A stretch of DNA of 64,000 nucleotides, taken from positions 36,341 to 100,340 of the forward strand of contig CAZFWG010000001.1 of the NCBI GenBank assembly GCA_964522525.1, in the 5' to 3' direction. The translations under genes were made by a program, and so were the position numbers. The notes under the pieces were generated by a model that did no database searches, was not told the DNA's origin, and saw only the letters and a list, made by a program, of their open reading frames with translations. Source of the stretch: an uncultured Alphaproteobacteria bacterium. Its GTDB lineage: Bacteria; Pseudomonadota; Alphaproteobacteria; JAJFIK01. This document shows, piece by piece, positions 18,905-32,874 of the stretch. Position 1 is the first letter of the stretch. Each line of letters begins with the position of its first letter.

Positions 18905-21658
18905 GTGATCATCTCCCACAAATACCAATTCATCTTCATTCGGACCAGCAAGACCGCTGGAACCAGCGTCGAGATCAGCCTGTCGCGGTTCTGCGGCCCC
19001 GACGATGTGGTGACGCCCCTGGACCCGGAAGAGGAATATGTCCGGCGGGACTTGGGTGTCCATCCCCGGCATTTTCTGCGTCCTCCGTTCCAGTTTCTGG
19101 CGGGCAACATGCTCAATCTCTTTCAGGTTCATCCCCCGTCCGGCCGCCTGCTGACGCGGATAGTGGGTCAGCGCTATTCCGCCTTCATGTCCGCCCGCGA
19201 GGTCAAAGCGCGGGTGGGCCCCGACATCTGGGACAGCTATACCAAATTCGCCATCGAACGGGACCCGCTCGACCGGTTGATGTCGTCCTACTATGCGGAT
19301 CTGGTGGCGGACCGGGTGCGGACCATCGACGAGTTCATGGCCCAGCCGACGCTTGAGTCCAATTTCGAGACCTATTCCCAGGACGGGGAGATCATCGTCG
19401 ACCGGATCCTGCGCTACGATCAGCTTAAAGAGGAGCTGCGGGACCTGTGTGGCCAGTTGGGCGTGCCCTTTGACGGCTGGCTGCCCCGCGCCAAGGCCAA
19501 CAACCGACGCAACAAGCGCAACTGGCGGGACTTGCTGGACGAGACGCAGATCGACCGGATCTGGTTTGAATGCGCGCGGGAATTCCGTGTCTTGAAGGAT
19601 TTGGGAGCGCCGCTTCCGGAGGAAGTCCTGCCGCTGGTCGAGCCGGCCCCGGCTCCCCGTCCCAAGGCGCCCGCAACCGAAGCGCCCCGATCGGAAACAC
19701 CAAGACCGGAAACACCCAGACCGCAGGCGCCCAAGCCGGAGAAAATCCGTCCGGCGGCACCAAAGACGCCGGCGCCCGAACCGGCCGCAACGAGACCAGC
19801 CGAAACCATCGCCAGGTCCGAGGGACCATCGGACCGGATCAATCGGAAGCCGGCCGCCGCCCCAAGCGCCGCGAAGCCGGTCCGCAAACCCGTGCGGGTG
19901 CGTCCCCAGGATCGGGCGCCCGAGCCCATTGTGGATCCTCTGCCGGCGCATCATCCGGGCCCGGCGCCCTCGGCGCCCCCATCCTCCGCGCGCGGCCAGA
20001 GCCCGCTTTCCGGGGAACTCCTGTCGGAAATCGACGCCCCCGCCCGGGATCCCGTGGTGCCCGAACCCGCGGTGGCGGAGGAACCCGCTCCCGTGCAAGG
20101 CACGCCAAAGGCGCGTCCCTGGCTTGATCCGGAACCGGCGGTGACCCCGTTGGAACGGGTCAATGGGCGGGGGGGCAAGCAAGACAAGACCGTCGCGTCC
20201 GCCGGCCGTCCGAAGACGCCGCGCCCGCCAAAGGAGCCCGTCGATCCGCTTGTGGATGTGCTGGCCGAGGTCAAGGCCGATCTGGTTCGCCCGAAGGGGC
20301 CCCTGCGGCCTGTTCCCTTGGACGAGGAGAAAGCGCCTCGGGATGGCGAGCCGTCACCGGCGGGGACCGTGTCCGAGGTGGCGGGCACGCAGGGCGGCGC
20401 CGTTGATCCCGCAGCCCCGAAATCCGCCGCCGGACCTTACGAAACCGTTGATAAGACCCTGGTCGATCACGATGCTGCGGAAATCGACGTGGCGGATGAC
20501 GGGCCCGATGGTTTTCCGGATGCGGCCGTCATGTCGAGCCTGCCGCAGGAGGAAACCGCGCCCCGTCCCCAGCCCGATGAGGGGCTGGACGCGGATGAAC
20601 TCCTCGGCTCGATCCGGGCCATTCAAGCGGTGCGCGCGGCTCAGGTGCCTGAAGGCGACGCCGTCTTGAGCTATGACGATGTGTGGCAGGGGGAGAAAAC
20701 CCCACAAGCGCCGCCGCCCGTTGAACCGGCGCCCCCCGCACGGGTCCCGGATCCGGAGCAGCGTCCGGCCCCGGTTCCCCCACAAGCTCCTGCAACGCAG
20801 CCGCCGCAAACGGACAGTGGATCGGCGCCTTTGTCCCCCTCCGCCATGATGGCCAAGGCCAAGGAAGGTCTTCCGAGCAAGGAATCTTTCCAGGCGCAGC
20901 TCAAGGCGGAGATCGAGAAATCACTGCGCAATGCCTTGAGCGAGGCTCTGGTGTCGCGCCGCATTGCCGAGGCCCTGCAAAAGCGGGTGGCCCGGAAAGA
21001 AGAACCGAGCGAAGCGGAAGAGGCGCTAAGCCAAATCGAGACAGCACCGGCGCCCCAAACTGAATCAAACGAGCCTCCCCTGTCCCGGGACGAGTCACCG
21101 TCAGCGCCCGTGCCATCGGTCCCCGAATCCAGTCCGGCCATCGCCATGCTGGAGCGTTTCCAGGAAAAATGGGCCCCGCTTTTGCGTCCGGAAACGGCAC
21201 GCGACCAAGGCAGCCAAAAGCTGAACGAGCCGCGCGCGCCGGCGCTTCCCGCCGCTTCGGGTTCGGGCCGCCCATCCGTTTCGCCGCCCCTGCAGGAAAC
21301 GCCGGTCGAGGCTTCGGCGAAGGCCGCGCCTGAGATCCAGATCGCCGCGCCGGATCCTCGACAGGTCCGGACCCAAACGGTGAAGGTCCCTCCCGCGCGC
21401 ACGCCGGGCATGTTCGATGAGACCGGGGCCGGGGGCCCGTTGACCCTGGCGCCGCCGGAACCGCCCGCTTGGCTCGATGATGACGATCTTTCCTGGTTGC
21501 CGGGATATGAATCCGACGACGAGGATGGTCCTTTCCCGGACGGGCTCGGCGGCCCGACCAGTGGTGCCGACAGCACAATGGTGACCACGGCGGCGCCCCC
21601 CGGCCAGACGGCCCCTGTGCCGGGTGTGCCCATCCTGCCGTCAACGCCCAGCAAATAA
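18905..21658 (+). CDS. NodH-like sulfotransferase domain (~250 aa) fused to a ~650-aa Pro/Ala/Glu-rich low-complexity tail
   Basis: N-terminus KYQFIFIRTSKTAGTSVE matches the PAPS 5'-phosphosulfate-binding loop of Sulfotransfer_3/NodH-type enzymes. The rest is compositionally biased (PAPEP/PRPETPRP-like repeats). It uses a GTG start. Codon usage is uniform across the whole ORF. Confidence 0.6.
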   Translation: MIISHKYQFIFIRTSKTAGTSVEISLSRFCGPDDVVTPLDPEEEYVRRDLGVHPRHFLRPPFQFLAGNMLNLFQVHPPSGRLLTRIVGQRYSAFMSAREVKARVGPDIWDSYTKFAIERDPLDRLMSSYYADLVADRVRTIDEFMAQPTLESNFETYSQDGEIIVDRILRYDQLKEELRDLCGQLGVPFDGWLPRAKANNRRNKRNWRDLLDETQIDRIWFECAREFRVLKDLGAPLPEEVLPLVEPAPAPRPKAPATEAPRSETPRPETPRPQAPKPEKIRPAAPKTPAPEPAATRPAETIARSEGPSDRINRKPAAAPSAAKPVRKPVRVRPQDRAPEPIVDPLPAHHPGPAPSAPPSSARGQSPLSGELLSEIDAPARDPVVPEPAVAEEPAPVQGTPKARPWLDPEPAVTPLERVNGRGGKQDKTVASAGRPKTPRPPKEPVDPLVDVLAEVKADLVRPKGPLRPVPLDEEKAPRDGEPSPAGTVSEVAGTQGGAVDPAAPKSAAGPYETVDKTLVDHDAAEIDVADDGPDGFPDAAVMSSLPQEETAPRPQPDEGLDADELLGSIRAIQAVRAAQVPEGDAVLSYDDVWQGEKTPQAPPPVEPAPPARVPDPEQRPAPVPPQAPATQPPQTDSGSAPLSPSAMMAKAKEGLPSKESFQAQLKAEIEKSLRNALSEALVSRRIAEALQKRVARKEEPSEAEEALSQIETAPAPQTESNEPPLSRDESPSAPVPSVPESSPAIAMLERFQEKWAPLLRPETARDQGSQKLNEPRAPALPAASGSGRPSVSPPLQETPVEASAKAAPEIQIAAPDPRQVRTQTVKVPPARTPGMFDETGAGGPLTLAPPEPPAWLDDDDLSWLPGYESDDEDGPFPDGLGGPTSGADSTMVTTAAPPGQTAPVPGVPILPSTPSK

Positions 21659-21767: not shown

Positions 21768-23579
21768 ATGATACGGAGGCTGTGGGCCGGCTGGCTGGGC
21801 TGGATCGACCGTTTCGCGGTCGAAGGCGCCGGTGAGGACTTCGTCGCAATCGTCCGTTACCGGACTTTGGCGACGACCAGCCTGCTGATTACCCTCCTCA
21901 TGCTGCCGAGCCCCGTCCGAGGCTACTTCGTGCTTGACCTGCCGGACTGGGTCGTGGGCTATCATGTCCTGTGTCTGCTCATGGTCGCGGCCGCCATGCC
22001 CACGATGGTCTTGACACGACACATTATATGGCCGACGACACAGATTGTGGCCGGCTTATATCTTTCCGTGATCGAAACAGGCCTGCGGGCCGGCGGTCTT
22101 GACGGCGCCACATCCCAGATCCTGGCTATTCTTCCCCTGGCCGCCGGTCTGATGCTGGGTATGCGCTATTGCCTCATTTGTGGTCTGATCGTTGTCTTGA
22201 CTTATGGCTTTTTGTTCTATGTTTCCGTCAGTCTTCCCGCCGCACCAATGGCCTCACCGTCCAGCGGGCCGGGCAGACAACTCCTCTACTATGTGATCGT
22301 CACCCTCGGCATCACCGGTTTCACCTTTGCGCTTCTTCTGATCCTGAAACATGCTGTCCGCTCTCTCGAGCAGGCCAGGGACATCGCCGATGCGGCCAAT
22401 CGGCAAAAATCCGAGTTCCTCGCCAATATGAGCCATGAAATCCGGACACCCATGAACGGCGTTCTGGGACTGCTCCATATTGCCCGTGAGAAGAACGCAT
22501 CGCCGGACGTCGGCGACCTGTTGGACGACGCCCATGCAAGTGCGGGTCTGCTGCTGGACATCATCAATGACATCCTGGATTTCTCGAAGCTGGAAGCTGG
22601 CTGTATGGCCATCCACGCCCGGCCCTTCGCGTTCAAGGAGACGGTCCGGCGGGTCGCCGCCCTCGTGAAGCCGAAAGCGGTCGAGAAGGGGCTCGATTTC
22701 CGGATCTCCTTTGACGCTGACATCCCCCCGTGCCTCATCGGAGACGAGACGCGACTTCAGCAGATCCTTTTCAATATCCTGGGCAACGCCGTCAAATTCA
22801 CGGATCAGGGCCGGGTCGATCTGCGGGTCACCGCGTTTGAGATCCAGGCGGAGCACGTCTCGCTGCGTATGGAGGTTGAGGATACGGGGCCCGGCCTTTC
22901 CGATTTCGACCGATCAAGGGTGTTTGAACGGTTTACCCAAGTCGATTCATCGGTGACTAAGACCAAAGGCGGCACGGGCCTGGGCCTTGCGATCTGCAAG
23001 CAGTTGGTGGATCTCATGGACGGGCGGATCGGTGTGGCCAGCCGGGAGGGCGAGGGGAGCTTGTTCTGGATAGAGATCACCCTGCCCATCGATCATGTCG
23101 GGGACATTCAACATCAGGACGAGACCAGCGTTGCATCGGGGGGACGGGCACTCCGGATATTGGTCGCCGAAGACAATATGATCAATCAGAAGATCATCGT
23201 TCTGATGCTGGAGAGTCTTGGGTTTGAACCGCCGATCCTCGTGGAGGACGGTCAGGCAGCCCTCGATATGCTGGGGACGAATGAGTTTGACGTGGCCCTT
23301 CTTGATATTCAGATGCCGACCAAGGACGGGTTGACCGTCGCCCGAGAGGCGCGTGCCCGATTGCAGAACGTCCCGCCCCTGATTGCCGTGACCGCCAATG
23401 CGATGGCCGGGGATGAAGAACGCTATTTGGACAATGGTTTTGACGGTTATGTCTCAAAACCCTTGAGTGCCCAGGCCCTCTGGACGGAGATCACCCGGGT
23501 CACTTGCGCATCGCGCAGCGTCGCTCAGCCGGGCAGGTCGCACAGTCAAGATCCGCCTGGAAGCCGCTCCGTTGCATGA
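21768..23579 (+). CDS. Hybrid sensor histidine kinase/response regulator (membrane-embedded sensor, HisKA, HATPase_c, C-terminal receiver)
   Basis: About six N-terminal TM helices. H-box ANMSHEIRTPMNG. N/G boxes LGNAVKFT and GGTGLGLAICK. Receiver domain has LVAEDN...DVALLDIQMP...VSKP. Confidence 0.8.
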   Translation: MIRRLWAGWLGWIDRFAVEGAGEDFVAIVRYRTLATTSLLITLLMLPSPVRGYFVLDLPDWVVGYHVLCLLMVAAAMPTMVLTRHIIWPTTQIVAGLYLSVIETGLRAGGLDGATSQILAILPLAAGLMLGMRYCLICGLIVVLTYGFLFYVSVSLPAAPMASPSSGPGRQLLYYVIVTLGITGFTFALLLILKHAVRSLEQARDIADAANRQKSEFLANMSHEIRTPMNGVLGLLHIAREKNASPDVGDLLDDAHASAGLLLDIINDILDFSKLEAGCMAIHARPFAFKETVRRVAALVKPKAVEKGLDFRISFDADIPPCLIGDETRLQQILFNILGNAVKFTDQGRVDLRVTAFEIQAEHVSLRMEVEDTGPGLSDFDRSRVFERFTQVDSSVTKTKGGTGLGLAICKQLVDLMDGRIGVASREGEGSLFWIEITLPIDHVGDIQHQDETSVASGGRALRILVAEDNMINQKIIVLMLESLGFEPPILVEDGQAALDMLGTNEFDVALLDIQMPTKDGLTVAREARARLQNVPPLIAVTANAMAGDEERYLDNGFDGYVSKPLSAQALWTEITRVTCASRSVAQPGRSHSQDPPGSRSVA

Positions 23580-23604
23580 CCGGCTGTGAAGTCTGGACCT
23601 GCGC

Positions 23605-24354
23605 CTAGAGCCGTCGAACGCTTTCGGGATCAATCCGAAAACGGAGAATGGCGCCGGCCTGTTCCAATTGGCCGGATGCCTCGATGGGATCCGCCACATA
23701 CCGCAGGAGCGAGTCCGGCATCGGATTGCCATCCGGATCGGTGATCAGAGCATTCGTGAAGCCGTTTTCGTGGCGCACAACGAAATGGGGCGGCACGCCC
23801 CCGATCAGGCAGAGCGTGGCGCAGGCCTTGTGAGCCTTCCCCGCGCCGGGCTTCATGACACCCAGAAAGCATTTGCTGTCGACAATTTCCCCACGGATCG
23901 TCCGAGGTCCAAGGCTTTCGATGAGGAGGGGCGTGACGCCCGACGTGCCGAAGGCGGTAATCGCCTCGTCGCCGTCAATGAACTCGATCGAGACGCGCCC
24001 CTGGCGCTCGATATAGAAGCCCTGAACCCGAACACGCTGGTCTTCGAGACCTTCGACCCGATCCTCCACGCCCAGTTTCCCAGTGGAAATCAGAGTGGCG
24101 ACTTTCTCGACACCGTCTTCCGTGTAGAACAGCATCGGGTAGGGGATGCGGCGCAGGGTTCCTTCGAAGGTCCGCGCCTCATCGCTGAGCCACCGACCGG
24201 TGCCGGGATCCTGCTGGGCGCCCGCGAGAAGGACGGCAAGGCCCGCGCTGGCCCCGAACAGGAATGCGGTCAGGATCATCATGGAGATGGCAAGACCGCG
24301 TGGCATGGGGGCAAGGCCGATATAGAACGGGCTTTCCGATGTCTTCTCTGCCAT
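23605..24354 (-). CDS. Membrane-anchored hypothetical protein with a C-x15-C-x3-C motif; last gene of the Rieske operon
   Basis: One N-terminal TM helix (AISMMILTAFLFGASAGLAVLLA). Contains CFLGVMKPGAGKAHKACATLC. GGAGGGA RBS before the ATG at 24354. Lies 10 nt downstream of the FRD-Rieske gene. Confidence 0.5.
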   Translation of the reverse strand: MAEKTSESPFYIGLAPMPRGLAISMMILTAFLFGASAGLAVLLAGAQQDPGTGRWLSDEARTFEGTLRRIPYPMLFYTEDGVEKVATLISTGKLGVEDRVEGLEDQRVRVQGFYIERQGRVSIEFIDGDEAITAFGTSGVTPLLIESLGPRTIRGEIVDSKCFLGVMKPGAGKAHKACATLCLIGGVPPHFVVRHENGFTNALITDPDGNPMPDSLLRYVADPIEASGQLEQAGAILRFRIDPESVRRL

Positions 24355-24366
24355 CACTCCCTCCGT

Positions 24367-25425
24367 CTACGCGCCATTCGGTGAAGCTGGGATCACGGCG
24401 GGTGCCTCCGGTGTGCCCGGCGGATTGGCTTTGGCATTGACCCAGACGATGCCGTCCTGAATGCCCACGCGATAGGTCGCAATCTTTTCCTGGTAGGGCG
24501 GCGGGGATTGCCCGCTTTCCGGCAGATATTGGTAGCCGTGCCAGGGACAGGTGATGCAGCCGTCGACGACGCGCCCTTCACCCAGGGGGCCGTTCTGATG
24601 GGCACAGACATTGCTGACGGCGGCGATCTTTCCGTCATATCGGAAGACGGCGATGCTGTCTTCGGGCCGGTGGATGATCTTGGCACGGTTGTTCGCGATA
24701 CTGTCGATGGGACCGACCTCGATCCACTCCTCGTCGATCACGGGGGAAACCCGGTCCGCGAAGGCCCGGCTCGTGCTGGTGATCAGGTGAAGCCCGCCGA
24801 CCCAGATGACGCTGCCCGCCAAAAGAGCCCAATAGGTCATGGACACTTCGTCCTGAAGAATGCCGAGTGCGATATGGACGCACAATGCCGCATAGGCGAC
24901 ATAGACGAACATATGAAGCGCCTTCCACAAGGGCGGCGACAGATTGGCGAGCCAGAAATCATGACTGGTCGCCGCCATCACGAACAAGACGATCAGCGCG
25001 AAGAACCCGAAGACTTCAAAGGGAATGACGGCGGTGGTCGAATAGTCCGCACTGGTGGCAAACAGGGAGACCAGAGGGCTGAGCACGCCGAAGCCGTGAT
25101 ACCATCCGAGGGCGATCACAAAATGGAAAAGCGCGATGAAGAAGGTGACCACACCGAAATGGCGCCGATTGTACAGCAGCGGCAGGAAGACCGTATTGAG
25201 TCGCGCCAGCGGACCGATGGACAGGATGATGGTCAGCATCAGGAAGGCACAGGTACCGAGCGCCCGGATCGCCATGATCGGCGGGCTGATCTCGTGGCCG
25301 GGTTCGGCGGTCAGAATGGAGACGACCATGAAGGTGACGAGATAGAGAACCACGCCCAGGCCCAGAAACAGATCATAGATCTTCTTGTTCCGGTTCCAGA
25401 GAACCATATTGTATCCGACGGCCAT
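24367..25425 (-). CDS. Fusion of a ferric-reductase-like (FRD/MsrQ-type) di-heme transmembrane domain with a C-terminal Rieske [2Fe-2S] domain
   Basis: Six predicted TM helices with two H-x12-H pairs on separate helices (RRHFGVVTFFIALFH and LHMFVYVAYAALCVH), the bis-His heme-b ligation pattern of FRD domains. The C-terminus has Rieske boxes CAHQNGPL and CPWHGYQY. Strong GGAGGGAG RBS. Confidence 0.7.
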   Translation of the reverse strand: MAVGYNMVLWNRNKKIYDLFLGLGVVLYLVTFMVVSILTAEPGHEISPPIMAIRALGTCAFLMLTIILSIGPLARLNTVFLPLLYNRRHFGVVTFFIALFHFVIALGWYHGFGVLSPLVSLFATSADYSTTAVIPFEVFGFFALIVLFVMAATSHDFWLANLSPPLWKALHMFVYVAYAALCVHIALGILQDEVSMTYWALLAGSVIWVGGLHLITSTSRAFADRVSPVIDEEWIEVGPIDSIANNRAKIIHRPEDSIAVFRYDGKIAAVSNVCAHQNGPLGEGRVVDGCITCPWHGYQYLPESGQSPPPYQEKIATYRVGIQDGIVWVNAKANPPGTPEAPAVIPASPNGA

Positions 25426-25468
25426 GGTGTCTCCCTCCGATCCGCGGTCCTCCGCGGTCTGTCAGCAG

Positions 25469-25651
25469 TCAGGCAAATCCGAGTGGGTCGGCAGAAAGGG
25501 GCATGCTCTGGGACCGCACGCCCAAACCTTCTTCCAGGGGCACGACCGGTGTTTCCCGGCGCGCCTCATAGGCGAGGATGAGGGCGAGCAGGGTCAAGGG
25601 CAAAAGGATCAGCCAGATGATCAGATGGGCACGTCTCTGGGCGCGCTTCAT
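25469..25651 (-). CDS. Small membrane protein (60 aa)
   Basis: Single TM helix LIIWLILLPLTLLALILA after a basic N-region. Starts 3 nt after the stop of the 77-aa gene. GGGGAAGG RBS. Confidence 0.4.
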   Translation of the reverse strand: MKRAQRRAHLIIWLILLPLTLLALILAYEARRETPVVPLEEGLGVRSQSMPLSADPLGFA

Positions 25652-25654
25652 GGT

Positions 25655-25888
25655 TCAAGCCTTCCCCTCTCGGGCGGGAATCCCGCCGCGAATCCAATGG
25701 TAAAGCAGAACAGGCCACAAGGCCACGCTTCCCGGGATGAGCAGGAGACGGACGGAAAGCTTGGCGCCCTTGGCGTTGGGGTCGACGCGGCCGATGCCGA
25801 TCGTGACAAAGATGACGGCGAAGATCAGTCCCGCCGCGAAATAGAGGGCCAAGGCGCTGACGATCATTTCCGCCGTTTGAATGTCCAT
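25655..25888 (-). CDS. Small two-TM membrane protein (77 aa)
   Basis: Two hydrophobic helices. GGAAAGG RBS 6 nt upstream. Tightly spaced within the operon. Confidence 0.45.
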   Translation of the reverse strand: MDIQTAEMIVSALALYFAAGLIFAVIFVTIGIGRVDPNAKGAKLSVRLLLIPGSVALWPVLLYHWIRGGIPAREGKA

Positions 25889-25917
25889 GATGCCTTTCCC
25901 GGTGCCGTTCGGTTGTC

Positions 25918-26511
25918 TCAGGAAGGAAGCGGCAGCGCTTCGTTCCGTTCAAGGTGTAATGCGTTGCGGCTTCCCGTTGTCCGCCAGAGGGCGGCCGCCA
26001 GAAGCACGCCGTATCCGGCCTGTATCCAGGGCGAAAGACCCGCCCATTGCCGCGCGGTCTCGGGCGCCATGCCCAGCAGCATGAACAGGCCCCCCGATTG
26101 ATCCGTACCGACACAGTGGCCGAGCAGGCCGGGGCCCACGGCGATGACGAGCCCGAACGCCGCCAGGACCATGAGGCTTGCCCGGTTGGTTTCGATGGCG
26201 CGCGCCCATGCAAGACCCATCAACACCGCAAGGCCCACGGACAGAACCACCTGGGTCAGGGTCACCGCATAGGAACGTTCCACGGGCATGCGGGCGGCAA
26301 GGTCGATCTCAAAAACGGGCAGGGCCCAGATCACTGCAGGATCCAAGACATGGAGCGTGGGCCAGGCCCGCCACAGGGGGGCGTCGAAAGCAAGCCGCAG
26401 GCTGCCGATTTCGCCATAGACAAAGAGCGCCGCCACCAGACCCGGCAGGGTGAAAACCGCATAAAGCGCCAACAGCACAAGGCCGAGGCGCACGGTCAGG
26501 CGCTCCGTCAT
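25918..26511 (-). CDS. Integral membrane protein (~197 aa, 5-6 TM helices), function unknown
   Basis: Start MTERLTV, whose ATG overlaps the TGA of the upstream Rieske-TPP gene (ATATGA). The upstream 39 codons of the ORF look non-coding. Confidence 0.5.
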   Translation of the reverse strand: MTERLTVRLGLVLLALYAVFTLPGLVAALFVYGEIGSLRLAFDAPLWRAWPTLHVLDPAVIWALPVFEIDLAARMPVERSYAVTLTQVVLSVGLAVLMGLAWARAIETNRASLMVLAAFGLVIAVGPGLLGHCVGTDQSGGLFMLLGMAPETARQWAGLSPWIQAGYGVLLAAALWRTTGSRNALHLERNEALPLPS

Positions 26512-28511
26512 ATCAGTTCCACATCCTGCATGATCTCGATCAAGGCGGGCTTGTCGCTCGCCAGCCCCTTGGCGAAAGCATCCTTCAGTTCCTCGCGCTG
26601 CGTGACCCGGATGCCGAGGCCTCCGCACAGGGTCGCATAGTCCGCAAAGGAAGGGTTATGCAGACTGGTCTGCCAGACCGGCCATTGTCCGGCCCGCTGT
26701 TCCTTGGAAATCTTGCCCAGTTCGCTGTTGTTGAGCAGGATATGGGTGATGTTCATGCCGTATTTCACGGCCGTGGTGAATTCGGCCATATACTGACCAA
26801 ACCCGCCATCGCCACTGATCGACACCACTTTGCGGTCGGGGCCGCCCGGCGCCGTGCCGGCCTTGACCGCGCACCAGGCGCCAAGTGCCGCCGGAAAGGC
26901 AAAGCCGATCGAGCCCAGATAGCCGGACATCAAGACGGCCTGGTGTTTGGGCTCGAAATAGCGGCCGAAGGAATAGGTGTTGTTGCCCACATCGACGGCG
27001 ATGACGGCATCATCCGGTATCGTATCATTGAGAACGTCGAACACCGCGGCCGCGGAAAGGCCCTTGCCCAGATCATCCGTCAGGCGGCGTTTTTTCTCCT
27101 CCCGCCAGATGCGCCAGCGTTCGGCGATTTCATCGCGCTGATCCACCCGGTCGGCGGTACCGTCAAGGGCGCCGCACATCAGATCGGCCGTGACCCCCAC
27201 TTCGCCCCAGACCGGCGCATGGACCATGTGAAACTTGCCCAGCGCCATCTGGTCGAAATCGACCTGGATCAGGATCTTGGAGGTGGAAATACCGGTGTGG
27301 TCGGAAAACGAGGCCCCGAAAACACAGATCACGTCGGCTTCATTCATGAACCAACTGGCGATCGGCGTCCCGCTGCGCCCCAACACGCCGGCGGCGAGGG
27401 GGTGGGCGTCGGGGATCTGGCCCTTGCCCTTGAAGGTCGTTAGGACAGGCGCGTTCAGACGCTCGGCCAGGGCGATGATCTTGTCCATGGCCGTGCGCGC
27501 GCCATAGCCCACGACGATGATCGGCCGTTTGGCGGCGTTCAGGAAACGCATGGCCTGATCGAGGGCGTCGGGCGCCGGGGCGATATGGGGGTCGCCGATC
27601 CGGCCCTTGGGGTTCGAGGGCCGGGCTTTTTCATCCGCCTTCTGAACCTGGACTTCATCGGGGAAGATCAGATGGGCCACGTCGCGTTTGATGGTGGCGT
27701 GTTTGAGCGCGAGCGTCATCAGCTCCGCATGATCCGAGTTCTGCAAGGTCGTCTGGCTGAAGGTGGCCACGGGCGCGAAGGCGGAGGCCAGATCGATTTC
27801 CTGGAAGGCGCCGGGGCCGAAAACCTGGGTGTTGACCTGGCCGGTCAAGGCCAGGACCGGGGCCCGGTCGACCTTGGCATCCCATAGGCCCGTGAGCAGA
27901 TTGGTGGCGCCCGGCCCCGCGATCGCCAGACAGGCGGCGGGCTTGCCCGACAATTTGGCATAGCCGGAACAGGCAAAGGACGCCGCCCCTTCATGGCGAA
28001 TGCCGATATAGCTGAGATGGCCCGCGTCCTCTTCCCGGCGCAGGGCATCGGCCAGACCCAGATTGGAATGGCCCACCATGCCGAAGACATGGGTGACCCC
28101 CCAACGGGTCATGGTCTGGGCCATGATATCGCTGACCGTCGTTTCATGGGGTCCGCGCCCCGGCACGCCGACATAGATCCCGTCTTCCCGTTCCTCCACG
28201 GGAAAGGTGTCGATGCCGTCATCATGACCGCCGGGCGAGGTGCCGTCCCGGGGGTCAAAGTCCCAGCCATGCCAGGGGCAGCGCAACCAGCACCGGCCTT
28301 CGGCGCCGGTCTCGATCGAGCCTTCGCCCAAGGGACCACCCTGGTGGGGGCAGCGGTTGTCGACCGCCCAATGACGGCCCTCGAATTTGGACAGGGCCAC
28401 CGATGTGGTACCGGCGGTCGCGCTCTTGACGCGGCCCTCGTCCAACTCATCGAGCTCGGCCACCTTGTGCCATTCGAGGTCCGGGTTTGGGGCGGCGCCT
28501 TTGGTGCTCAT
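26508..28511 (-). CDS. N-terminal Rieske [2Fe-2S] domain fused to a thiamine-pyrophosphate-dependent enzyme (acetolactate synthase/pyruvate oxidase family)
   Basis: Rieske boxes CPHQGGPL and CPWHGWDF in the first ~110 aa. Then TPP_enzyme_N (GVTHVFGMVGHSNL), central and C-terminal TPP-binding domains (GSIGFAFPAALGA, ISGDGGFGQY). 667 aa. Confidence 0.75.
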   Translation of the reverse strand: MSTKGAAPNPDLEWHKVAELDELDEGRVKSATAGTTSVALSKFEGRHWAVDNRCPHQGGPLGEGSIETGAEGRCWLRCPWHGWDFDPRDGTSPGGHDDGIDTFPVEEREDGIYVGVPGRGPHETTVSDIMAQTMTRWGVTHVFGMVGHSNLGLADALRREEDAGHLSYIGIRHEGAASFACSGYAKLSGKPAACLAIAGPGATNLLTGLWDAKVDRAPVLALTGQVNTQVFGPGAFQEIDLASAFAPVATFSQTTLQNSDHAELMTLALKHATIKRDVAHLIFPDEVQVQKADEKARPSNPKGRIGDPHIAPAPDALDQAMRFLNAAKRPIIVVGYGARTAMDKIIALAERLNAPVLTTFKGKGQIPDAHPLAAGVLGRSGTPIASWFMNEADVICVFGASFSDHTGISTSKILIQVDFDQMALGKFHMVHAPVWGEVGVTADLMCGALDGTADRVDQRDEIAERWRIWREEKKRRLTDDLGKGLSAAAVFDVLNDTIPDDAVIAVDVGNNTYSFGRYFEPKHQAVLMSGYLGSIGFAFPAALGAWCAVKAGTAPGGPDRKVVSISGDGGFGQYMAEFTTAVKYGMNITHILLNNSELGKISKEQRAGQWPVWQTSLHNPSFADYATLCGGLGIRVTQREELKDAFAKGLASDKPALIEIMQDVELI

Positions 28512-28689
28512 CAGGGACGGTCCTTTCGGTCGTTTCTTGACCCTTCACAGATTATGTTTCCCACGGTCATGCCCCGGGCGTCACCAGTTTACCATTGTAA
28601 AAAATGCGCGATCACAGAAAACAACTTGTCGTAAGCGGTTGAGACGGTCGAGCATGGCGCTCCCGGCGGTCACAAGGAGAGAATGCCCC

Positions 28690-30306
28690 ATGAAGAATCG
28701 CATCGCGATCGCCCAATGGGATGAATTGAAAGATCGGGATCCGACCTATGCCTGTGTGGCGAATGTGGATCTTGTGATCATTCGTTACGACAATCAGGTA
28801 TCGGTCCTTTACGGACGATGTCTGCATCGGGGTGCTCTCCTGGCCGATGGGCATATTCGCGGTGAGGACCTGATCTGTGGTGTACATAATTGGGATTATC
28901 GCTACGACACGGGCGTCAGCGCCTACAACAATGAAGAGGTCCTGCAGAAATTCACGACCGAGATCGATTCGGGCTATGTTTATGTGGATGCGGACGAGAT
29001 CGCGGCGTGGGAAAAGGACCATCCCCAGCCCTATGACCGTCAGGCCTATCTTGGTCTCTATGCGGATACGCAAGGGACGCCGGACGAACCGCACACCGCG
29101 TTCATCCAGGAACTCGCCAATCATGGCCTGAAACGGGTGGGCCACCACGGGCCCATGGCGGCCATGGGCGTGCCCTTTCACACCCTTCCCCAGTGGGACG
29201 ACATTCAATTCGTCACGGCCCAGTTGCACCGTTTCCCGCTGCTTGATGAGGATCCGGTGGCGAGCGACGTGGTGATCGGCCCCAAGGCCAGACGGCCCCT
29301 CAAACTCGACATTCCCTTGCTGGTCTCGGATATGAGCTTCGGGGCGCTCTCCCAGGAAGCCAAGCTCGCCCTCGCCAAGGGCGCGGACGACGCGGGCACG
29401 GGCATCTGCTCGGGCGAGGGCGGCATGCTGCCCGAGGAGCAGGAAGCCAATCGGCGCTATTTCTATGAGCTGGCCTCGGCCCGTTTCGGCTTTTCCTGGG
29501 ACGCGGTTGGTAAGGTTCAGGCTTTCCATTTCAAGGGAGGTCAGGGCGCCAAGACCGGCACCGGCGGCCATGTGCCGGGCAGCAAAGTCACGGGCAAGGT
29601 GGCGCAGGTGCGCGGTCTTCAGGAGGGGGAGCCCGCGGTCTCGCCGGCCCGTTTTCCCGACTGGACCGAGCTGCGCCAGATCCGGGATTTCGCCGAGGAA
29701 GTGCGCGAGCGCACCGGCGGTATTCCCATCGGCTACAAGCTTTCCGCGCAGCAGGTGGAAAAGGACATCGACGCGGCGCTCAAGGTCGGTGTCGACTACA
29801 TCATCCTCGACGGCCGGGGCGGCGGCACCGGTGCCGCGCCGACCCTGTTTCGGGACCACATCGCCGTGCCCACGATTCCGGCCCTGGCCCGGGCCCGGCG
29901 CCATCTCGACCATCTGGGCTGTGCCCATGTCACGCTGATCGTGACCGGGGGCCTGCGCACGCCGGCCGATTTCGCCAAGGCGCTGGCGCTGGGGGCCGAC
30001 GCCATTGCCCTTTCCAACGCGGCGATGATGGCCATCGGCTGTCTGGCCATGCGGGCCTGCAACACCAACAACTGTCCCGTCGGTATTACCTCCATGAAGG
30101 ACCATCTCAGGGCGCGCCTTGAGATCGAGGCCTCGGCCCGTCGATTGCACAATTTTTTCGAAGCCTCGGTCGATCTTATGAAGGTAATGGCAAGGGCCTG
30201 CGGTCATCATCATTTGGGGGACTTCTGTCTTGAGGACTTGGTCACCTGGAAGGATGACGTGGCAAAGCTGACGGGCGTTCCCTATGGCGGCGTGGGGCGC
30301 TCATAG
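28690..30306 (+). CDS. N-terminal Rieske-type [2Fe-2S] domain fused to an FMN-binding glutamate-synthase-family (GltS FMN) domain
   Basis: Rieske-like boxes CLHRGALL and CGVHNWDY. Then the Glu_synthase-type FMN/Fe-S barrel (SDMSFGALS, GEGG, KVAQ..GQGAKTGTGGHVPG, ILDGRGGGTGAAP). AAGGAGAG RBS 9 nt before the ATG at 28690. The 101 in-frame codons upstream were rejected. Confidence 0.75.
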   Translation: MKNRIAIAQWDELKDRDPTYACVANVDLVIIRYDNQVSVLYGRCLHRGALLADGHIRGEDLICGVHNWDYRYDTGVSAYNNEEVLQKFTTEIDSGYVYVDADEIAAWEKDHPQPYDRQAYLGLYADTQGTPDEPHTAFIQELANHGLKRVGHHGPMAAMGVPFHTLPQWDDIQFVTAQLHRFPLLDEDPVASDVVIGPKARRPLKLDIPLLVSDMSFGALSQEAKLALAKGADDAGTGICSGEGGMLPEEQEANRRYFYELASARFGFSWDAVGKVQAFHFKGGQGAKTGTGGHVPGSKVTGKVAQVRGLQEGEPAVSPARFPDWTELRQIRDFAEEVRERTGGIPIGYKLSAQQVEKDIDAALKVGVDYIILDGRGGGTGAAPTLFRDHIAVPTIPALARARRHLDHLGCAHVTLIVTGGLRTPADFAKALALGADAIALSNAAMMAIGCLAMRACNTNNCPVGITSMKDHLRARLEIEASARRLHNFFEASVDLMKVMARACGHHHLGDFCLEDLVTWKDDVAKLTGVPYGGVGRS

Positions 30307-30453
30307 GGCATCGGGAGAAACGCGTTGCCAGGGGAGGTAGTCGGTCCGGCTTAGGCCTTTTGACCAGTTCCCGGCGTTAACCAAAATTTTACCTTTCATT
30401 GGACCCGAGGTGCCATCCCGGCTAGCCTTGGAGCCGGTGGAGGGACGGCAGCA

Positions 30454-30747
30454 ATGCGGATCTGGTACGAAATCGAAGACGCTTTGGAGACCTGCTTCGA
30501 AGATGTGGAGCGGGCGATCCATACGGAATGTCGGTTCGAGGTTTGGGAGTGGTGTGCCCTGGAAAGCGGCGCCGAGGCGAGCCTTGTGGGGCGCTTCTCA
30601 AACCGCCGACTTGCCCAGCTGTTCATTTCCCGGATGGAAAGCGAAGTCGAGGAAACGGGCCGGGGCGCCCATTATCCCCGTGACGACCGTCAGCGGGCGC
30701 TCGATGCTTTCCATGCCGTCAGTCCTACCGACAGCACCGTCCACTGA
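30454..30747 (+). CDS. Hypothetical acidic protein (97 aa)
   Basis: GGAGGG RBS upstream of the ATG. No recognisable motif. Lies downstream of, and co-oriented with, the Rieske-GltS gene. Confidence 0.4.
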   Translation: MRIWYEIEDALETCFEDVERAIHTECRFEVWEWCALESGAEASLVGRFSNRRLAQLFISRMESEVEETGRGAHYPRDDRQRALDAFHAVSPTDSTVH

Positions 30748-30862
30748 AGACACGGTTTTGAGACCGCGATTGTAAGCGCGCGGTTTCGGGCACGCAGGCC
30801 GCGCCAGGTCTCCTGTGCGCAGGTATTATCTGCCGCTTGCGGATGAAACGAAGGCGCGCGTC

Positions 30863-31012
30863 TTATTGGGTGACGGCCTCTGCGTTTTCCTCCATGCCAT
30901 CCTGTGCCGGAACATCCTCGGAAAATGTCACGGCGAGCATCAGCAGGGCGATGATGCCGATTGCGATGCCAAGGGGGCTCGGCCGATTGTCGTCCAGCGA
31001 AAAATCCGCCAT
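30863..31012 (-). CDS. Small single-TM protein (49 aa), below the ORF-track length cutoff
   Basis: Reverse-strand translation gives MADFSLDDNRPSPLGIAIGIIALLMLAVTFSEDVPAQDGMEENAEAVTQ. GAGGAA RBS 9 nt upstream. Lies in an AT-richer 460-bp gap. Confidence 0.35.
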   Translation of the reverse strand: MADFSLDDNRPSPLGIAIGIIALLMLAVTFSEDVPAQDGMEENAEAVTQ

Positions 31013-31207
31013 GAGACGTTCCTCATTTTATCATTATGTCGGCAGGGAGGCCGACACTTCTTCAGTATTTGATATACTATCGATCGCGCGGGCCGCCGGG
31101 CGCGACCCCTCGTTTGTTGTCTGAACGTGGCCGAACCCCAAAATAAGCAGGGCCTCACGCCGTGTTACGAATTATGCATCACATGTGAGAACAGCTTCTC
31201 ATCAACA

Positions 31208-32170
31208 TTACGGATTGGCAAGATCTTCCCGCGCCAGGGTTTCAACACCCAGAATCCAGGCCTCTTCCTTGAGAATCGCCTTGTTTTGCGCCGCCGTCAC
31301 GACGCGTGGCCCCTTAAACAATTGGTGCAGCTCGTTTTTTTCGTCGAGGGCTGACAGATACTCGACAACATTTCGCACCTGCACGGCGTCTTTCACCTCT
31401 CCGGGCGCCCCATGTCGAACCCAGAGAGAAGGATAAATCTCCGCCATTGTGACCATGGCGTCACAGTCATCGGGTGGCGCCAGGCCGGTTTCAAACGGCC
31501 AGACATTGATCCGGGAGCCGATCACCGGATCCCGGCGGAGCGCTTCGAGGACGGGCAGACCCATCAGCACCTGGCTGCCCACCGATCCCGTGGTGTAGAG
31601 CTTCCACACCGGTTGGGCGCCTTGCGCGGCCCGGTCGGCCAATCGTCGCTCCGCGATATCACCGGGGCCATGGGGCCGGCTTTTGCGTTGGGTCAAGAAG
31701 GGCGCGTCCCTGCCCACGGGACATCCCCAGAACGGAAACGCGGTCCCGGATAGGGTCTCGTTCATCCGTGCCGCGACGGTGAAGCGATTGTTTTCATTGC
31801 GCGGACCATCTTCGATCTCCCGCGCCAGATAGGACCAGAGCCGTTGCCAGGGAGGCTTCCGACCCGGCAAGCGCAACGCTGCCGCTGTCCCCGCCGGATA
31901 GCCGAAGGGGAAGTCGAAGCCGGCAAGCACCTGGCTTCCCCGGTTCAGCCGCTCACGGAACAAGTCATGGAGCCTGGCGCGTGCCTGCCCGCGAGTCTCG
32001 GGATTTTCCAGATGAACGGGCGTGTGCGCGCCCGCGTCCCGATCTAACACCGCGATCCAGATGCTGTCGGCGCCCGTCCGGGGGCGGGCAGCGGCGGACC
32101 AGTCCACCATGATGAAACTGTCGAACTGGGCGATGGCTTGGGACCGGTTTGGGGCGTCGCGGGCAGGCAT
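31208..32170 (-). CDS. Conserved hypothetical protein (possibly DUF429-like)
   Basis: 320 aa with no diagnostic motif I can name with certainty. Codon usage is consistent with the genome. Confidence 0.5.
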   Translation of the reverse strand: MPARDAPNRSQAIAQFDSFIMVDWSAAARPRTGADSIWIAVLDRDAGAHTPVHLENPETRGQARARLHDLFRERLNRGSQVLAGFDFPFGYPAGTAAALRLPGRKPPWQRLWSYLAREIEDGPRNENNRFTVAARMNETLSGTAFPFWGCPVGRDAPFLTQRKSRPHGPGDIAERRLADRAAQGAQPVWKLYTTGSVGSQVLMGLPVLEALRRDPVIGSRINVWPFETGLAPPDDCDAMVTMAEIYPSLWVRHGAPGEVKDAVQVRNVVEYLSALDEKNELHQLFKGPRVVTAAQNKAILKEEAWILGVETLAREDLANP

Positions 32171-32196: not shown

Positions 32197-32874
32197 TCAG
32201 CCTGCCCGATATCTTTGGGGGAAGCCATGCCTGAAGGGCGTACCACCCCTCAGGACAGAGAGGAAATCATAGGCTTTCGTGGTGTGCAAATGCCGGAGGC
32301 GAGCCAAAATGCCGCTTGAGGCCATATGCAGGCGCAAGGTCGAGGCTTTCCTCGGATGCACTGGGCCGGCGCCCTGAGCGGGCGAGGCCACGAGAGGATC
32401 ATTGACCTTGTTTTCCGTCCCAAGACCATTGAGGCGCTGCCGCTCCGCTGGCGTGAGGTGCAACATGGCGTCATCCATATGCCAGTCCAGCGCGGCATCG
32501 CTGGCGAAACGGTGCGTCCTGGGAATACCGTCGAGGGTCGGTGACAGATCACTGGCCTGGGATCGGAGGGGCGGTCGCACCGAAAGGCCCTGAAGGGCGA
32601 GGGAGATTTCGCTGGCCTGTACGCTTCTCAGCGTGACGAGACGACCGGATCCCTGTTGATCCTGGGTCATGGGCAGACCCAAAAGGGCCCAATCTGCCTT
32701 CGGAGCCGACGCCGGGCCTTGGGCCTGCCGGAAGCTGTGAAGCAATCGCTGCGCAAAAGGCATCTTCTCGTTGACGAAGGCGCCATAGGCCCCGATCAGG
32801 ACGATCATGCACAGGCCGGCGATGGCCCTGTAGGTCAGCCGTTTTCGAAACTCGTTGAGGAGGAAATAGATCAT
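32197..32874 (-). CDS. Membrane-anchored hypothetical protein
   Basis: One N-terminal TM helix (AIAGLCMIVLIGAYGAFV). Weak RBS. Lies between motA and the downstream hypothetical on the same strand. Confidence 0.4.
   Translation of the reverse strand: MIYFLLNEFRKRLTYRAIAGLCMIVLIGAYGAFVNEKMPFAQRLLHSFRQAQGPASAPKADWALLGLPMTQDQQGSGRLVTLRSVQASEISLALQGLSVRPPLRSQASDLSPTLDGIPRTHRFASDAALDWHMDDAMLHLTPAERQRLNGLGTENKVNDPLVASPAQGAGPVHPRKASTLRLHMASSGILARLRHLHTTKAYDFLSVLRGGTPFRHGFPQRYRAG

Follow-up and report, generated by a model that had tools for sequence, protein, structure and literature searches.

A predicted di-heme membrane unit genetically linked across phyla to Rieske-tagged thiamine and FMN enzymes

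Three Rieske fusion proteins at one locus

Why do three genes within 6.7 kb of an uncultured alphaproteobacterial genome each carry a Rieske module fused to an unrelated partner, and do they belong to one electron transfer system? The locus lies in a contig stretch of 64,000 nucleotides (the window), and a preliminary description had read it as a single dedicated module. Each of the three proposed proteins (A, G and E, all where they had been placed) has an above-threshold Rieske match in Pfam, as well as the partner domains claimed for it (TPP, Glu_synthase and Ferric_reduct, respectively), and the CxH...CxxH ligands are invariant in the family alignments. Within the 64-kb window, Rieske-like cross-matches are confined to A, G and E, and no oxygenase component was found.

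26508..28511, minus strand: A, 667 aa, N-terminal Rieske domain and pyruvate-oxidase/PoxB-like thiamine-diphosphate enzyme (Pfam, NCBIfam, PDB match)
28170..28475, minus strand: Rieske [2Fe-2S] domain of A, aa 13-114, CPHQGGPLGEG...CPWHGW (Pfam and alignment)
28512..28689, no strand: A/G divergent intergenic region, 178 nt (sequence read)
28690..30306, plus strand: G, 538 aa, N-terminal Rieske domain and glutamate-synthase-type FMN/[3Fe-4S] barrel (Pfam, PDB alignment)
28702..28998, plus strand: Rieske [2Fe-2S] domain of G, aa ~5-103, CLH...CGVH (Pfam and alignment)
30040..30075, plus strand: C-x5-C-x4-C-P motif of G, CLAMRACNTNNCP, matching the glutamate synthase [3Fe-4S] ligands
24367..25425, minus strand: E, 352 aa, six-helix di-heme ferric-reductase-domain (FRD) protein with C-terminal cytoplasmic Rieske ferredoxin domain (Pfam)
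24751..25392, minus strand: transmembrane FRD region of E, aa 12-225, with H89, H101, H171 and H184 as predicted heme ligands
24436..24729, minus strand: Rieske [2Fe-2S] domain of E, aa 233-330, CAHQNGPLGEG...CITCPWHGY (Pfam and alignment)

Protein A combines a Rieske domain (55.1 bits, cut-off 20.3, aa 13-91) with TPP_enzyme_N, M and C domains (113, 111 and 110 bits). Its assignment as a TPP enzyme thus stands, but it lies nearer to pyruvate oxidase and PoxB than to acetolactate synthase as originally proposed: these are its top NCBIfam models, led by pyruvate oxidase PRK08611 (385 bits against a cut-off of 742), although A misses all equivalog cut-offs. The best PDB match is E. coli PoxB (3EYA, E 5e-61), in an alignment that ends near PoxB residue ~526 of 572. 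A resembles PoxB and Lactobacillus pyruvate oxidase in its three TPP domains, catalytic Glu and GDG...NN motif, and lacks the C-terminal membrane/lipid-binding peptide of PoxB, having the N-terminal Rieske domain instead. The Rieske ligands (C54/H56/C78/H81) are invariant in the family alignment, as are Glu174 of the RHEG motif and GDGG...NN in the catalytic part.

Protein G pairs its Rieske domain (44.2 bits, aa 5-75) with a Glu_synthase domain (297.9 bits) that aligns with the FMN domains of the GltS large subunits 7MFM and 1EA0, its CLAMRACNTNNCP segment matching GCVMMRACHLDTCPVG of 7MFM. The Rieske ligands (C44/H46/C63/H66) and Cys451/457/462 are invariant among 11 homologues (alignment A4). 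While the FMN barrel and the [3Fe-4S] motif are shared with the glutamate synthase large subunit (GltB/Fd-GltS), the glutamine amidotransferase, central and C-terminal GXGXG domains of the latter are absent from G, which scores 128 bits against NF008730 (NCBIfam cut-off 1047). Glutamate synthases receive electrons from ferredoxin or GltD; in G the N-terminal Rieske domain takes the place of that input partner.

The membrane protein E matches Ferric_reduct (44.7 bits, cut-off 28, aa 57-182) and Rieske (58.5 bits, aa 233-318). Six helices and bis-His pairs had been described for this protein and are indeed present, but the spacing is H-x11-H (H89/H101) and H-x12-H (H171/H184) rather than twice H-x12-H. 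All four histidines are invariant in the family alignment, as are the Rieske ligands C274/H276/C293/H296. By analogy with NOX and STEAP structures, H89 and H171 would bind the inner heme, and H101 and H184 the outer. The six-helix topology and the basic character of both the N-terminus and the TM2-TM3 loop (LLYNRRH) put the C-terminal Rieske domain on the cytoplasmic side. This domain is of the oxygenase-ferredoxin type. It shares 36% identity with that of A (E 2e-22, common HQ.GPLGEG...CPWHG) and 24% with that of G; from their sequences we assign the A and E domains to a shared Rieske subtype.

Companion membrane proteins and gene junctions

Four further membrane proteins are encoded on the minus strand with A and E.

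25918..26511, minus strand: B, 197 aa, polytopic membrane protein, start overlapping the A stop (ATGA)
25655..25888, minus strand: C, 77 aa, two-helix membrane protein, conserved core subunit (74/80 loci)
25469..25651, minus strand: D, 60 aa, single-helix membrane protein, conserved core subunit, N-terminal motif M-x-R-x-x-R-x-x-H-x-x-x-W
23605..24354, minus strand: F, 249 aa, N-terminal membrane anchor followed by two OB-like beta-barrels, conserved core subunit
23809..23871, minus strand: C-x12-H-x2-C-x3-C motif of F (C163, H176, C179 and C183 in 250-aa numbering)

The minus-strand junctions largely agree with the original reading, with an ATGA overlap of A and B at 26508-26511 and gaps of 29 nt (B-C) and 3 nt (C-D). 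The E-F gap, however, measures 12 nt if F starts at the ATG (24354) and 9 nt if it starts at a GTG (24357), not 10, and a 43-nt D-E gap had been omitted. The divergent A/G spacer measures 178 nt, as claimed; it contains a Shine-Dalgarno sequence, AAGGAGAG, 8 nt before the G start, and a consensus promoter scan of 28512..28689 found no sigma-70-like site.

These membrane proteins had been placed in one coupled unit, of which C, D and F are conserved core members but B is not. The latter has no Pfam or NCBIfam match and was found by tblastn in just one of 80 related loci, that of the closest relative (L001); we regard it as lineage-specific and outside the conserved system. C belongs to a family of ~75-aa, 2-TM proteins with no Pfam entry and the aligned motif Y..G..F...F......D..A.......R....PG...WP, and directly precedes D/E in 74 of the 80 loci. 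At most of the 80, an ORF bearing the D motif reaches the E start or runs into it, often overlapping by 4 nt. A strict regular expression for this motif matched 43 of 78 ORFs, with more cases seen by eye; tblastn alone finds D in 6/80 loci because the protein is so short. Its C-terminal tail is variable, ranging across loci from 50 to 180 aa.

Protein F is present in 76/80 loci. Its Cys/His motif is placed on two short helices between the barrels, within GEI.DSKC.LG.MKPG.GK.H..CA..C..GG.PP, whose columns are invariant among 25 sequences (alignment A2). A modest charge bias, the one cue to orientation, suggests that the domain faces the periplasm. No recognisable redox fold was found in F and a Tat motif is mostly absent, making an Fe-S cluster in a periplasmic F unlikely. 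Our guess is that the Cys3-His site serves as terminal acceptor, most plausibly as a bound metal or redox site.

Two conserved units with a facultative link

The conserved unit across 80 genomes and at least 8 phyla is C-D-E-F, with C, E and F each present in 74-80 of the 80 loci. Of these 80 genome loci, 22-23 have A and 18 have G no more than 10 kb from E; one or both occur within 10 kb of the core in 27, in at least nine gene orders, and A or G is less than 400 nt from the core in 24 of the 27. The linked loci come from Alpha- and Gammaproteobacteria, Bacteroidota, Balneolaceae, Planctomycetaceae and Thermoanaerobaculia, and translational coupling of G-C or A-B-C is often seen. Such recurrence across many phyla puts the grouping far beyond chance, and supports the proposal that a heme-b/Rieske membrane conduit is genetically linked with TPP and FMN enzymes; the juxtaposition is not accidental.

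The single dedicated module, by contrast, gives way to two units. In most genomes neither A nor G nor a different Rieske flavoenzyme lies within 10 kb of C-D-E-F, the A/G pair usually lacks E nearby in A-centred metagenome loci, and pair and core are linked in roughly one case in four. G neighbours A in 34 of 80 A-centred loci, and E does so in 8 (8 and 4, respectively, of the 15 loci flanked on each side by 4 kb or more). A and G hence form a second pair, tighter than their link to the core. The partnership is facultative, and on this comparative evidence we take the linkage to be selected. G alone is attached to the core in L007, L038, L047 and L057, and A alone in L002, L027, L044, L056, L060 and L065, so that each can pair with the core singly.

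A third partner type was found in a fusion of Rieske and NAD(P)H-dependent FMN reductase; this gene immediately precedes C in L078 and immediately follows F in L165. Its presence beside the core is as predicted by an electron-donor role of Rieske-tagged flavoenzymes. C-D-E-F is absent nearby for five of the seven family members examined (six plus that of L078).

Comparison with known systems

Two-heme 'long-form' FRDs are reported to have all four heme histidines invariant, as in E, whereas the single-heme YedZ-type short forms are reported to lack those of the inner heme (Zhang et al. 2013, PMC3591440). MsrQ (YedZ) of MsrPQ is likewise a bacterial FRD membrane cytochrome b, exporting electrons to a periplasmic partner of its own whose gene is adjacent. 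That partner, however, is the molybdoenzyme MsrP rather than an OB-fold Cys3-His protein such as F, and E differs further in its fused Rieske domain and the two extra small subunits C and D; the match of E to the NCBIfam MsrQ model is weak (33.9 bits, cut-off 130). NOX/FRE enzymes, including bacterial NOX5-like proteins and SpNOX, have a FAD/NADPH dehydrogenase input. E instead takes its input through a one-electron Rieske ferredoxin and, unlike NOX/FRE, therefore depends on a separate donor enzyme. STEAP proteins contain one heme, an inter-subunit FAD and an N-terminal F420-type NADPH domain, compared with two heme sites and a C-terminal Rieske domain in E. The Rieske ferredoxins of ring-hydroxylating oxygenases (CarAc, BphA3/BphF, NdoA, TodB) and NirD also differ from the present case, where Rieske domains are fused to a membrane cytochrome and to flavoenzymes.

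The FRD plus Rieske combination was catalogued among bacterial FRD fusions as model M4, with Rieske as 'electron transfer agent' (Zhang et al. 2013, PLoS One 8:e58126, PMC3591440). M4 is a figure-legend architecture, listed with an FMN domain; function, partners and operon context are not given, and C, D, F, A and G are not mentioned (PMC3591440). Apart from this 2013 architecture, nothing of the system had been noted previously, and no member of C-D-E-F/A/G is characterised.

Proposed electron flow and alternatives

Could A and G instead form a self-contained soluble redox couple, sharing with C-D-E-F no more than neighbourhood or regulation? Here A would oxidise a 2-oxo acid and pass electrons from Rieske to Rieske to G, which would act reductively through its 3Fe-4S cluster and FMN, for instance in imine or 2-oxo-acid amination; the two would in effect be a glutamate-synthase-like pair independent of ferredoxin and NAD(P)H. 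The preference of G for A over E as neighbour and the PoxB-like oxidative scaffold of A agree with this, as does the homology of G to true glutamate synthases, in which the 3Fe-4S/FMN barrel works reductively. We nevertheless consider it unlikely, as the close spacing, many gene orders and translational coupling seen in several phyla are hard to explain without a functional tie of A/G to the core. A more improbable reading has E itself as a NOX/STEAP-like terminal reductase, acting at the outer heme on O2 (to superoxide) or on Fe(III)/Cu(II), with F, C and D as assembly, stabilising or metal-handling factors rather than electron acceptors; F is, however, co-inherited with E as strictly as any subunit, and its invariant Cys3-His site suggests a direct catalytic or redox role.

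Slightly more doubtful still is flow in the inward direction, from quinol or a periplasmic donor bound to F, through the hemes and the cytoplasmic Rieske domain, to enzymes such as G. In its favour, the closest relatives of G act reductively and depend on an external donor of single electrons, and midpoint potentials are not fixed by sequence. Against this, E has an oxygenase-ferredoxin-type Rieske domain, and such domains are typically low-potential, so that transfer from quinol or b hemes would be uphill and unfavourable. Among the three partner types, moreover, both the PoxB-like oxidase and the NAD(P)H:FMN reductase are obvious electron sources. PMC12525009 and PMC5449189 report that MsrQ-type FRDs draw on the quinone pool, yet every characterised FRD protein moves electrons outward (PMC3591440).

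We tentatively favour a model in which the region joins two conserved units, the C-D-E-F membrane complex and the A/G flavoenzymes, with electrons flowing outward to periplasmic F. The first unit would be built around E, with STEAP/NOX-type six helices, two b hemes stacked across the membrane, and the cytoplasmic Rieske domain replacing the flavin/NAD(P)H domain of NOX or FRE; C and D would be small accessory membrane subunits, and F would present its Cys3-His site on a membrane-anchored OB-fold domain in the periplasm. In the second unit, A and G would be soluble flavoenzymes using the N-terminal Rieske domain as a one-electron port. A, with a putative FAD, may catalyse oxidative decarboxylation of a 2-oxo acid, while G, as a GltS-like FMN/[3Fe-4S] enzyme, may act on an amino or imino acid. 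If the cofactor sites are loaded as their ligands suggest and the proteins make contact, electrons would pass from substrate to the flavin of A, and possibly G, to their own Rieske domains and on to that of E, then via the inner and outer heme b to F. To our knowledge, Rieske-to-Rieske transfer between proteins has little precedent. From the sequence comparisons, C-D-E-F would thus be an "electron wire" that the A/G flavoenzymes probably feed.

A compact cluster with three Rieske fusion genes

Six close-packed ORFs occupy 23605–28511 on the minus strand of the window, with one divergent ORF on the plus strand. The preliminary description had claimed three Rieske fusion genes in this cluster. 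This is borne out, with Pfam detecting the Rieske, TPP_enzyme, Glu_synthase and Ferric_reduct domains above their gathering thresholds in the following proteins:

A, 26508–28511, minus strand, 667 aa: Rieske domain and TPP enzyme (Pfam Rieske and TPP_enzyme_N/M/C)
G, 28690–30306, plus strand, 538 aa: Rieske domain and GltS-type FMN barrel (Pfam Rieske and Glu_synthase)
E, 24367–25425, minus strand, 352 aa: ferric-reductase domain (FRD) and Rieske domain (Pfam Ferric_reduct and Rieske)

The small or polytopic membrane proteins B (197 aa), C (77 aa) and D (60 aa), as well as the membrane-anchored protein F (249 or 250 aa), have no family match in Pfam or NCBIfam.

The minus-strand genes are coupled at the operon level. 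The stop and start codons of A and B overlap as ATGA, as had been proposed. Gaps of 3, 10 and 29 nt had been claimed for other junctions; direct reading upholds 3 nt for C-D and 29 nt for B-C, while E-F measures 12 nt to an ATG or 9 nt to a GTG, and a D-E gap of 43 nt had been left out. Shine-Dalgarno-like GGAGG boxes are found ahead of C, E and F. The start of G lies 178 nt from A on the opposite strand and is preceded by AAGGAGAG. A promoter and terminator scan of 23000–31200 gave results no better than shuffled sequences. No Rieske-like sequence other than those of A, E and G occurs in the entire 64-kb window, and the original observation is therefore confirmed, with three corrections.

The flanks encode a hybrid histidine kinase, MotA, a TonB receptor, an MFS transporter and hypothetical proteins, none with an obvious functional tie to the cluster. 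The kinase gene (21768–23579, plus strand; receiver domain and multi-helix N-terminal membrane region) converges on F with the stop codons ~25 nt apart, and is not conserved beside F in other loci. A 917-aa ORF at 18905–21658 (plus strand) begins with a weakly sulfotransferase-like N-terminus (23 bits) and continues as ~700 aa of low-complexity sequence rich in Pro, Ala and Glu; this compositional bias accounts for the many overlapping ORFs on both strands there. Two consecutive minus-strand ORFs without a Pfam family (31208–32170, 320 aa; 32197–32874, 225 aa) are located between the cluster and motA (33036–33953).

E is a di-heme-type FRD protein with a Rieske domain

E matches PF01794 Ferric_reduct over residues 57–182 with 44.7 bits (cut-off 28) and has the six transmembrane helices of the STEAP/NOX fold. 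The candidate heme ligands H89, H101, H171 and H184, located on TM3 and TM5, are invariant in 18 diverse homologues and provide the two histidine pairs of the two-heme 'long-form' FRD signature. Their spacing is H-x11-H and H-x12-H, not H-x12-H twice as first reported, and differs from the x13 and x12 of NOX2. The Rieske ligands C274, H276, C293 and H296 are invariant in the same 18 sequences, as are H155-D156 (in ATSHDFW) and H213. In the AlphaFold model (pLDDT 84), a beta-rich domain comes after six transmembrane helices. The six helices, the basic N-terminus and the basic TM2–TM3 loop together predict a cytoplasmic location for the Rieske domain. A periplasmic Rieske domain inserted by the dual Sec/Tat route (Tooke et al. 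2017, PMC5449189) was rejected, given the six helices and the lack of an RR before the last of these.

A 5.8-billion-protein collection contains at least 8000 homologues that match E in length and architecture, the fullest annotation being 'ferric reductase-like transmembrane domain-containing protein'. Among the matches listed, the nearest relative belongs to an uncultured alphaproteobacterial MAG (L001; 69% identity for E).

Assignment of E to MsrQ fails on score (33.9 bits against an NCBIfam cut-off of 130), on heme count and on partner. The operon has no adjacent Tat-exported molybdoenzyme MsrP, and F, with its OB-like fold, belongs to no Pfam family. NOX/FRE membership was likewise rejected, as the C-terminal part matches Rieske families only and FAD/NAD(P)H dehydrogenase domains are lacking. 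The only mention of an FRD with a Rieske domain that our literature search returned is the architecture catalogue of Zhang et al. 2013 (PMC3591440), which describes an FRD architecture, M4, accompanied by FMN and Rieske modules; a search for MsrQ with Rieske found nothing beyond this note. Searches for Rieske-TPP or Rieske-GltS fusions, for DUF5818 and for the C, D and F families found no reports.

The Rieske domains and the catalytic parts of A and G

All three Rieske domains retain intact ligands. They score 55.1 (A), 44.2 (G) and 58.5 bits (E) against PF00355 (cut-off 20.3), and the CxH...CxxH ligands are invariant in the family alignments of A, E and G. The boxes read CAHQNG/CPWHGY in E, CPHQGG/CPWHGW in A and CLHRGA/CGVHNW in G. 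A high-potential bc1/b6f type was rejected, given that the boxes contain no extra disulfide cysteines and that the best structural matches are oxygenase-type ferredoxins. The domains of A and E are 36% identical (E-value 2e-22) with HQ.GPLGEG...CPWHG in common, while that of G is more distant at 24% identity.

The catalytic part of A is nearest to E. coli PoxB (3EYA, E-value 5e-61) and to the pyruvate oxidase model PRK08611 (385 bits, cut-off 742), which scores well above any acetolactate synthase model. The acetolactate-synthase-like label initially given to A should hence be replaced, with pyruvate oxidase/PoxB closer by both NCBIfam and PDB match; TIGR00118 reaches 289 bits against 538, and the other acetolactate synthase models lie far under their cut-offs and below the pyruvate oxidase model. 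A also misses the equivalog level of the pyruvate oxidases themselves (PRK09124, PoxB, 284 versus 792; TIGR02720, 283 versus 638). The three TPP-enzyme domains contain the invariant catalytic glutamate (E174) and the ThDP/Mg GDG-x-NN motif (G567-D568-G569-G570, N594-N595). Pfam finds TPP_enzyme_M, where FAD binding is putative. A C-terminal lipid-binding peptide brings PoxB to the membrane. The alignment of A with PoxB stops near PoxB residue ~526–532 of 572, and A thus does not have this membrane-binding activation peptide, a further difference from PoxB.

G scores 297.9 bits against PF01645 Glu_synthase and matches the FMN domain of glutamate synthase large subunits, including the C-x5-C-x4-C-P [3Fe-4S] motif; C451, C457 and C462 are invariant in 11 homologues and align with the GltS motif. 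It does not have the glutamine amidotransferase, central and C-terminal GXGXG domains of the large subunit, and so is not a GltS proper. The Glu_syn_central match is marginal (17.9 versus 22.8) and overlaps the FMN barrel, and NF008730 reaches 128 bits against 1047.

The conserved unit is C-D-E-F

An E-profile scan with one genome per species yielded at least 591 confirmed relatives, of which the best 80 were kept with 10-kb flanks and searched by tblastn with the seven window proteins. These 80 loci stem from Alpha- and Gammaproteobacteria, Bacteroidota, Balneolaceae, Cyanobacteria (Moorena), Verrucomicrobiota, Gemmatimonadota, KSB1, Nitrospirota, Planctomycetota (Phycisphaerae, Planctomycetia) and Acidobacteriota (Terriglobales, Thermoanaerobaculia, Bryobacteraceae).

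Loci with a tblastn match to each window protein (best 80 of at least 591)
E: 80
F: 76
C: 74
A: 23
G: 18
D: 6
B: 1

D is a short, fast-diverging protein, and most of these best 80 loci have a small ORF directly upstream of E that reads M-x-R-x-x-R-x-x-H-x-x-x-W followed by a Pro-containing helix. The C-terminal tail of this D-like ORF measures 50 to 180 aa, and a 4-nt overlap with the E start is common. Given the near-universal E, F and C, C-D-E-F thus emerges as the conserved unit; three of these four core proteins belong to no Pfam family. B starts translationally coupled to A and was found only in L001, and looks like a recent, lineage-specific insertion. In ~6–8 of the best 80 loci (of at least 591), a TANGO2-family gene and two small families without assignment reappear 2–7 kb downstream of F, mostly on the same strand (L013:12556–13335, L026:14352–14963, L026:13952–14419 and similar).

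C has two helices, a conserved loop and a basic C-terminus. F has ~1700 detectable homologues, all 'hypothetical', and 9 of 25 F sequences match DUF5818 weakly. Its invariant residues cluster in GEI.DSKC.LG.MKPG.GK.H..CA..C..GG.PP, corresponding to C163, H176, C179 and C183. The model, which is confident (pLDDT 90), consists of one N-terminal helix and two OB-like beta-barrels; two short helices located between the barrels carry the Cys/His residues. A fold search returned generic OB folds only. Mean charges of about +1.2 to +2 before the helix and -1 to -1.4 after it favour, with moderate strength, an N-in/C-out orientation, which would place the domain in the periplasm. Some marine alphaproteobacterial homologues read DRRFLLG; Tat export as a feature of the F family was rejected, as no twin-arginine is conserved in the 25-sequence alignment.

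A and G are a pair facultatively joined to the core

A reciprocal scan of metagenome contigs with the A profile (80 loci kept) found G adjacent to A in 34 loci and E in 8. Fifteen of these loci extend by 4 kb or more on both sides; 8 of them contain G and 4 contain E. G accompanies A more often than E does, and A and G therefore form a pair in their own right. Linkage to the core takes at least nine orders, including A< G> C> E> F>, A< C> E> F>, G> C> E> F>, G> A> C> D> E> F> and C> E> F> A>; the window order G< A> B> C> D> E> F> is common to L001 only. Among the best 80 E loci (of at least 591), 27 are linked, and in 24 of these no more than 400 nt separate A or G from the core. One of the 27 (L059) contains a TPP enzyme of 25% identity that is probably no true A. 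By our own rough estimate, two single-copy genes would be found no more than 10 kb apart in well under 1% of 4-Mb genomes. Repeated linkage across phyla and in many arrangements indicates a functional, optional tie of A and G to the core. The neighbourhood conservation anticipated in the preliminary description is hence found everywhere for C-D-E-F and is recurrent for A and G; the A/G linkage is optional and B is lineage-specific.

Other Rieske-tagged flavoenzymes

All ORFs of 160 loci (80 E-centred and 80 A-centred) were screened with a custom Rieske HMM derived from the three families. Beyond A, E, G and fragments the HMM matched three proteins. Two of these are alpha subunits of ring-hydroxylating oxygenases. 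The third has 388 aa, with Pfam Rieske and NADPH-dependent FMN reductase domains, and ends at the C start in a Pedosphaera locus (L078:8088–9254). Given this short list, no oxygenase partner accounts for the system. In a KSB1 locus (L165), the order is C-D-E-(inserted PDDEXK gene)-F-Rieske-FMN_red, with the Rieske-FMN_red gene at L165:6001–7101. This was the one C-D-E-F neighbour in six Rieske-FMN_red context look-ups, the other five contexts being unrelated; together with L078 this makes two, and the link to C-D-E-F is suggestive only. With A, G and Rieske-FMN_red all seen beside the core, three unrelated flavoenzymes with the same kind of N-terminal Rieske domain can therefore be attached to the C-D-E-F operon.

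The Rieske-FMN_red family (WrbA-like) is very large and highly conserved, with at least 7102 matches. In 14 of 80 metagenome loci, as well as in L016, L023 and L048, a DUF5996 protein (PF19459, ~280 aa, 'WPHHFD' motif) is encoded next to the Rieske-TPP gene; in one Burkholderiales genome it adjoins a Rieske-FMN_red gene. Copies lie at L109:2831–3664, L163:5228–5992 and L016:11892–12677. Rieske-tagged flavoenzymes may have an alternative partner in this protein, of which the window contains no copy. The PDDEXK_3 nuclease-family gene of the KSB1 locus (L165:4131–4934) splits an otherwise canonical C-D-E-F between E and F.

Proposed electron export and alternatives

We propose that the C-D-E-F system would work in a manner similar to transmembrane electron export of the MsrQ/NOX/STEAP type. 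Electrons would exit the flavin of A (possibly of G, or of Rieske-FMN_red elsewhere) singly via the fused Rieske domain and pass to the predicted cytoplasmic Rieske domain of E. They would then cross the membrane from an inner heme (H89/H171) to an outer heme (H101/H184) and arrive at the putative periplasmic Cys3-His site of F, with C and D serving as structural subunits. F might use the electrons to reduce or handle metals, act as a redox relay, or have some different role. The whole outward chain from flavoenzymes to F is put forward tentatively, as a model that could well be right but that we stop short of favouring outright.

The strong association of A with G in the A-centred loci would also fit a closed, soluble couple in which A passes electrons to G and the core is a mere neighbour. 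The tight and varied attachment of A alone or of G alone to the core argues against such a couple, which we consider unlikely. As regards direction, all characterised FRD proteins pass electrons outward to our knowledge. PoxB-like oxidase and NAD(P)H:FMN reductase are plainly electron sources, and represent two of the three attachable enzyme types. The FRD precedent, the ferredoxin-type Rieske fold and these donor-type partners together argue for outward flow, and an inward flow supplying G is the alternative to which we give the least credence. Alternatively, E could itself be a terminal O2 or metal reductase with F as an accessory factor, which we view as distinctly improbable.

The outward chain may be extended to a modular and hitherto unrecognised electron-export network widespread in bacteria, a more speculative reading that we judge possible, if somewhat doubtful. 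The common N-terminal Rieske subtype would provide unrelated flavoenzymes (PoxB-like ThDP/FAD, GltS-like FMN/3Fe-4S and WrbA-like NAD(P)H:FMN reductase) with a plug-in one-electron port, allowing these to dock on the cytoplasmic Rieske domain of the di-heme FRD protein. E and two new small subunits would thus couple the oxidation of central metabolites directly to a new periplasmic Cys3-His OB-fold protein with a redox or metal function.

Implications

What is new here is a putative FRD wire with iron-sulfur input, together with new subunits and candidate Rieske-tagged feeder enzymes. The E family (at least 8000 members) and F (~1700) are joined by thousands more Rieske-TPP and Rieske-FMN_red proteins across many phyla, and the compact four-gene system, both widespread and experimentally tractable, could be expressed for spectroscopy and reconstitution. 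If the outward model holds, a NOX/MsrQ-like transmembrane wire would receive its input from an iron-sulfur ferredoxin rather than a flavin, and would be fed by Rieske-tagged enzymes that directly oxidise 2-oxo acids or amino acids. A testable role would thereby emerge for the stand-alone GltS-like and PoxB-like paralogues that have long gone unannotated. Should the network reading be true, it would constitute a new branch of respiration, or of periplasmic redox maintenance, circumventing both NAD(P)H and quinones.
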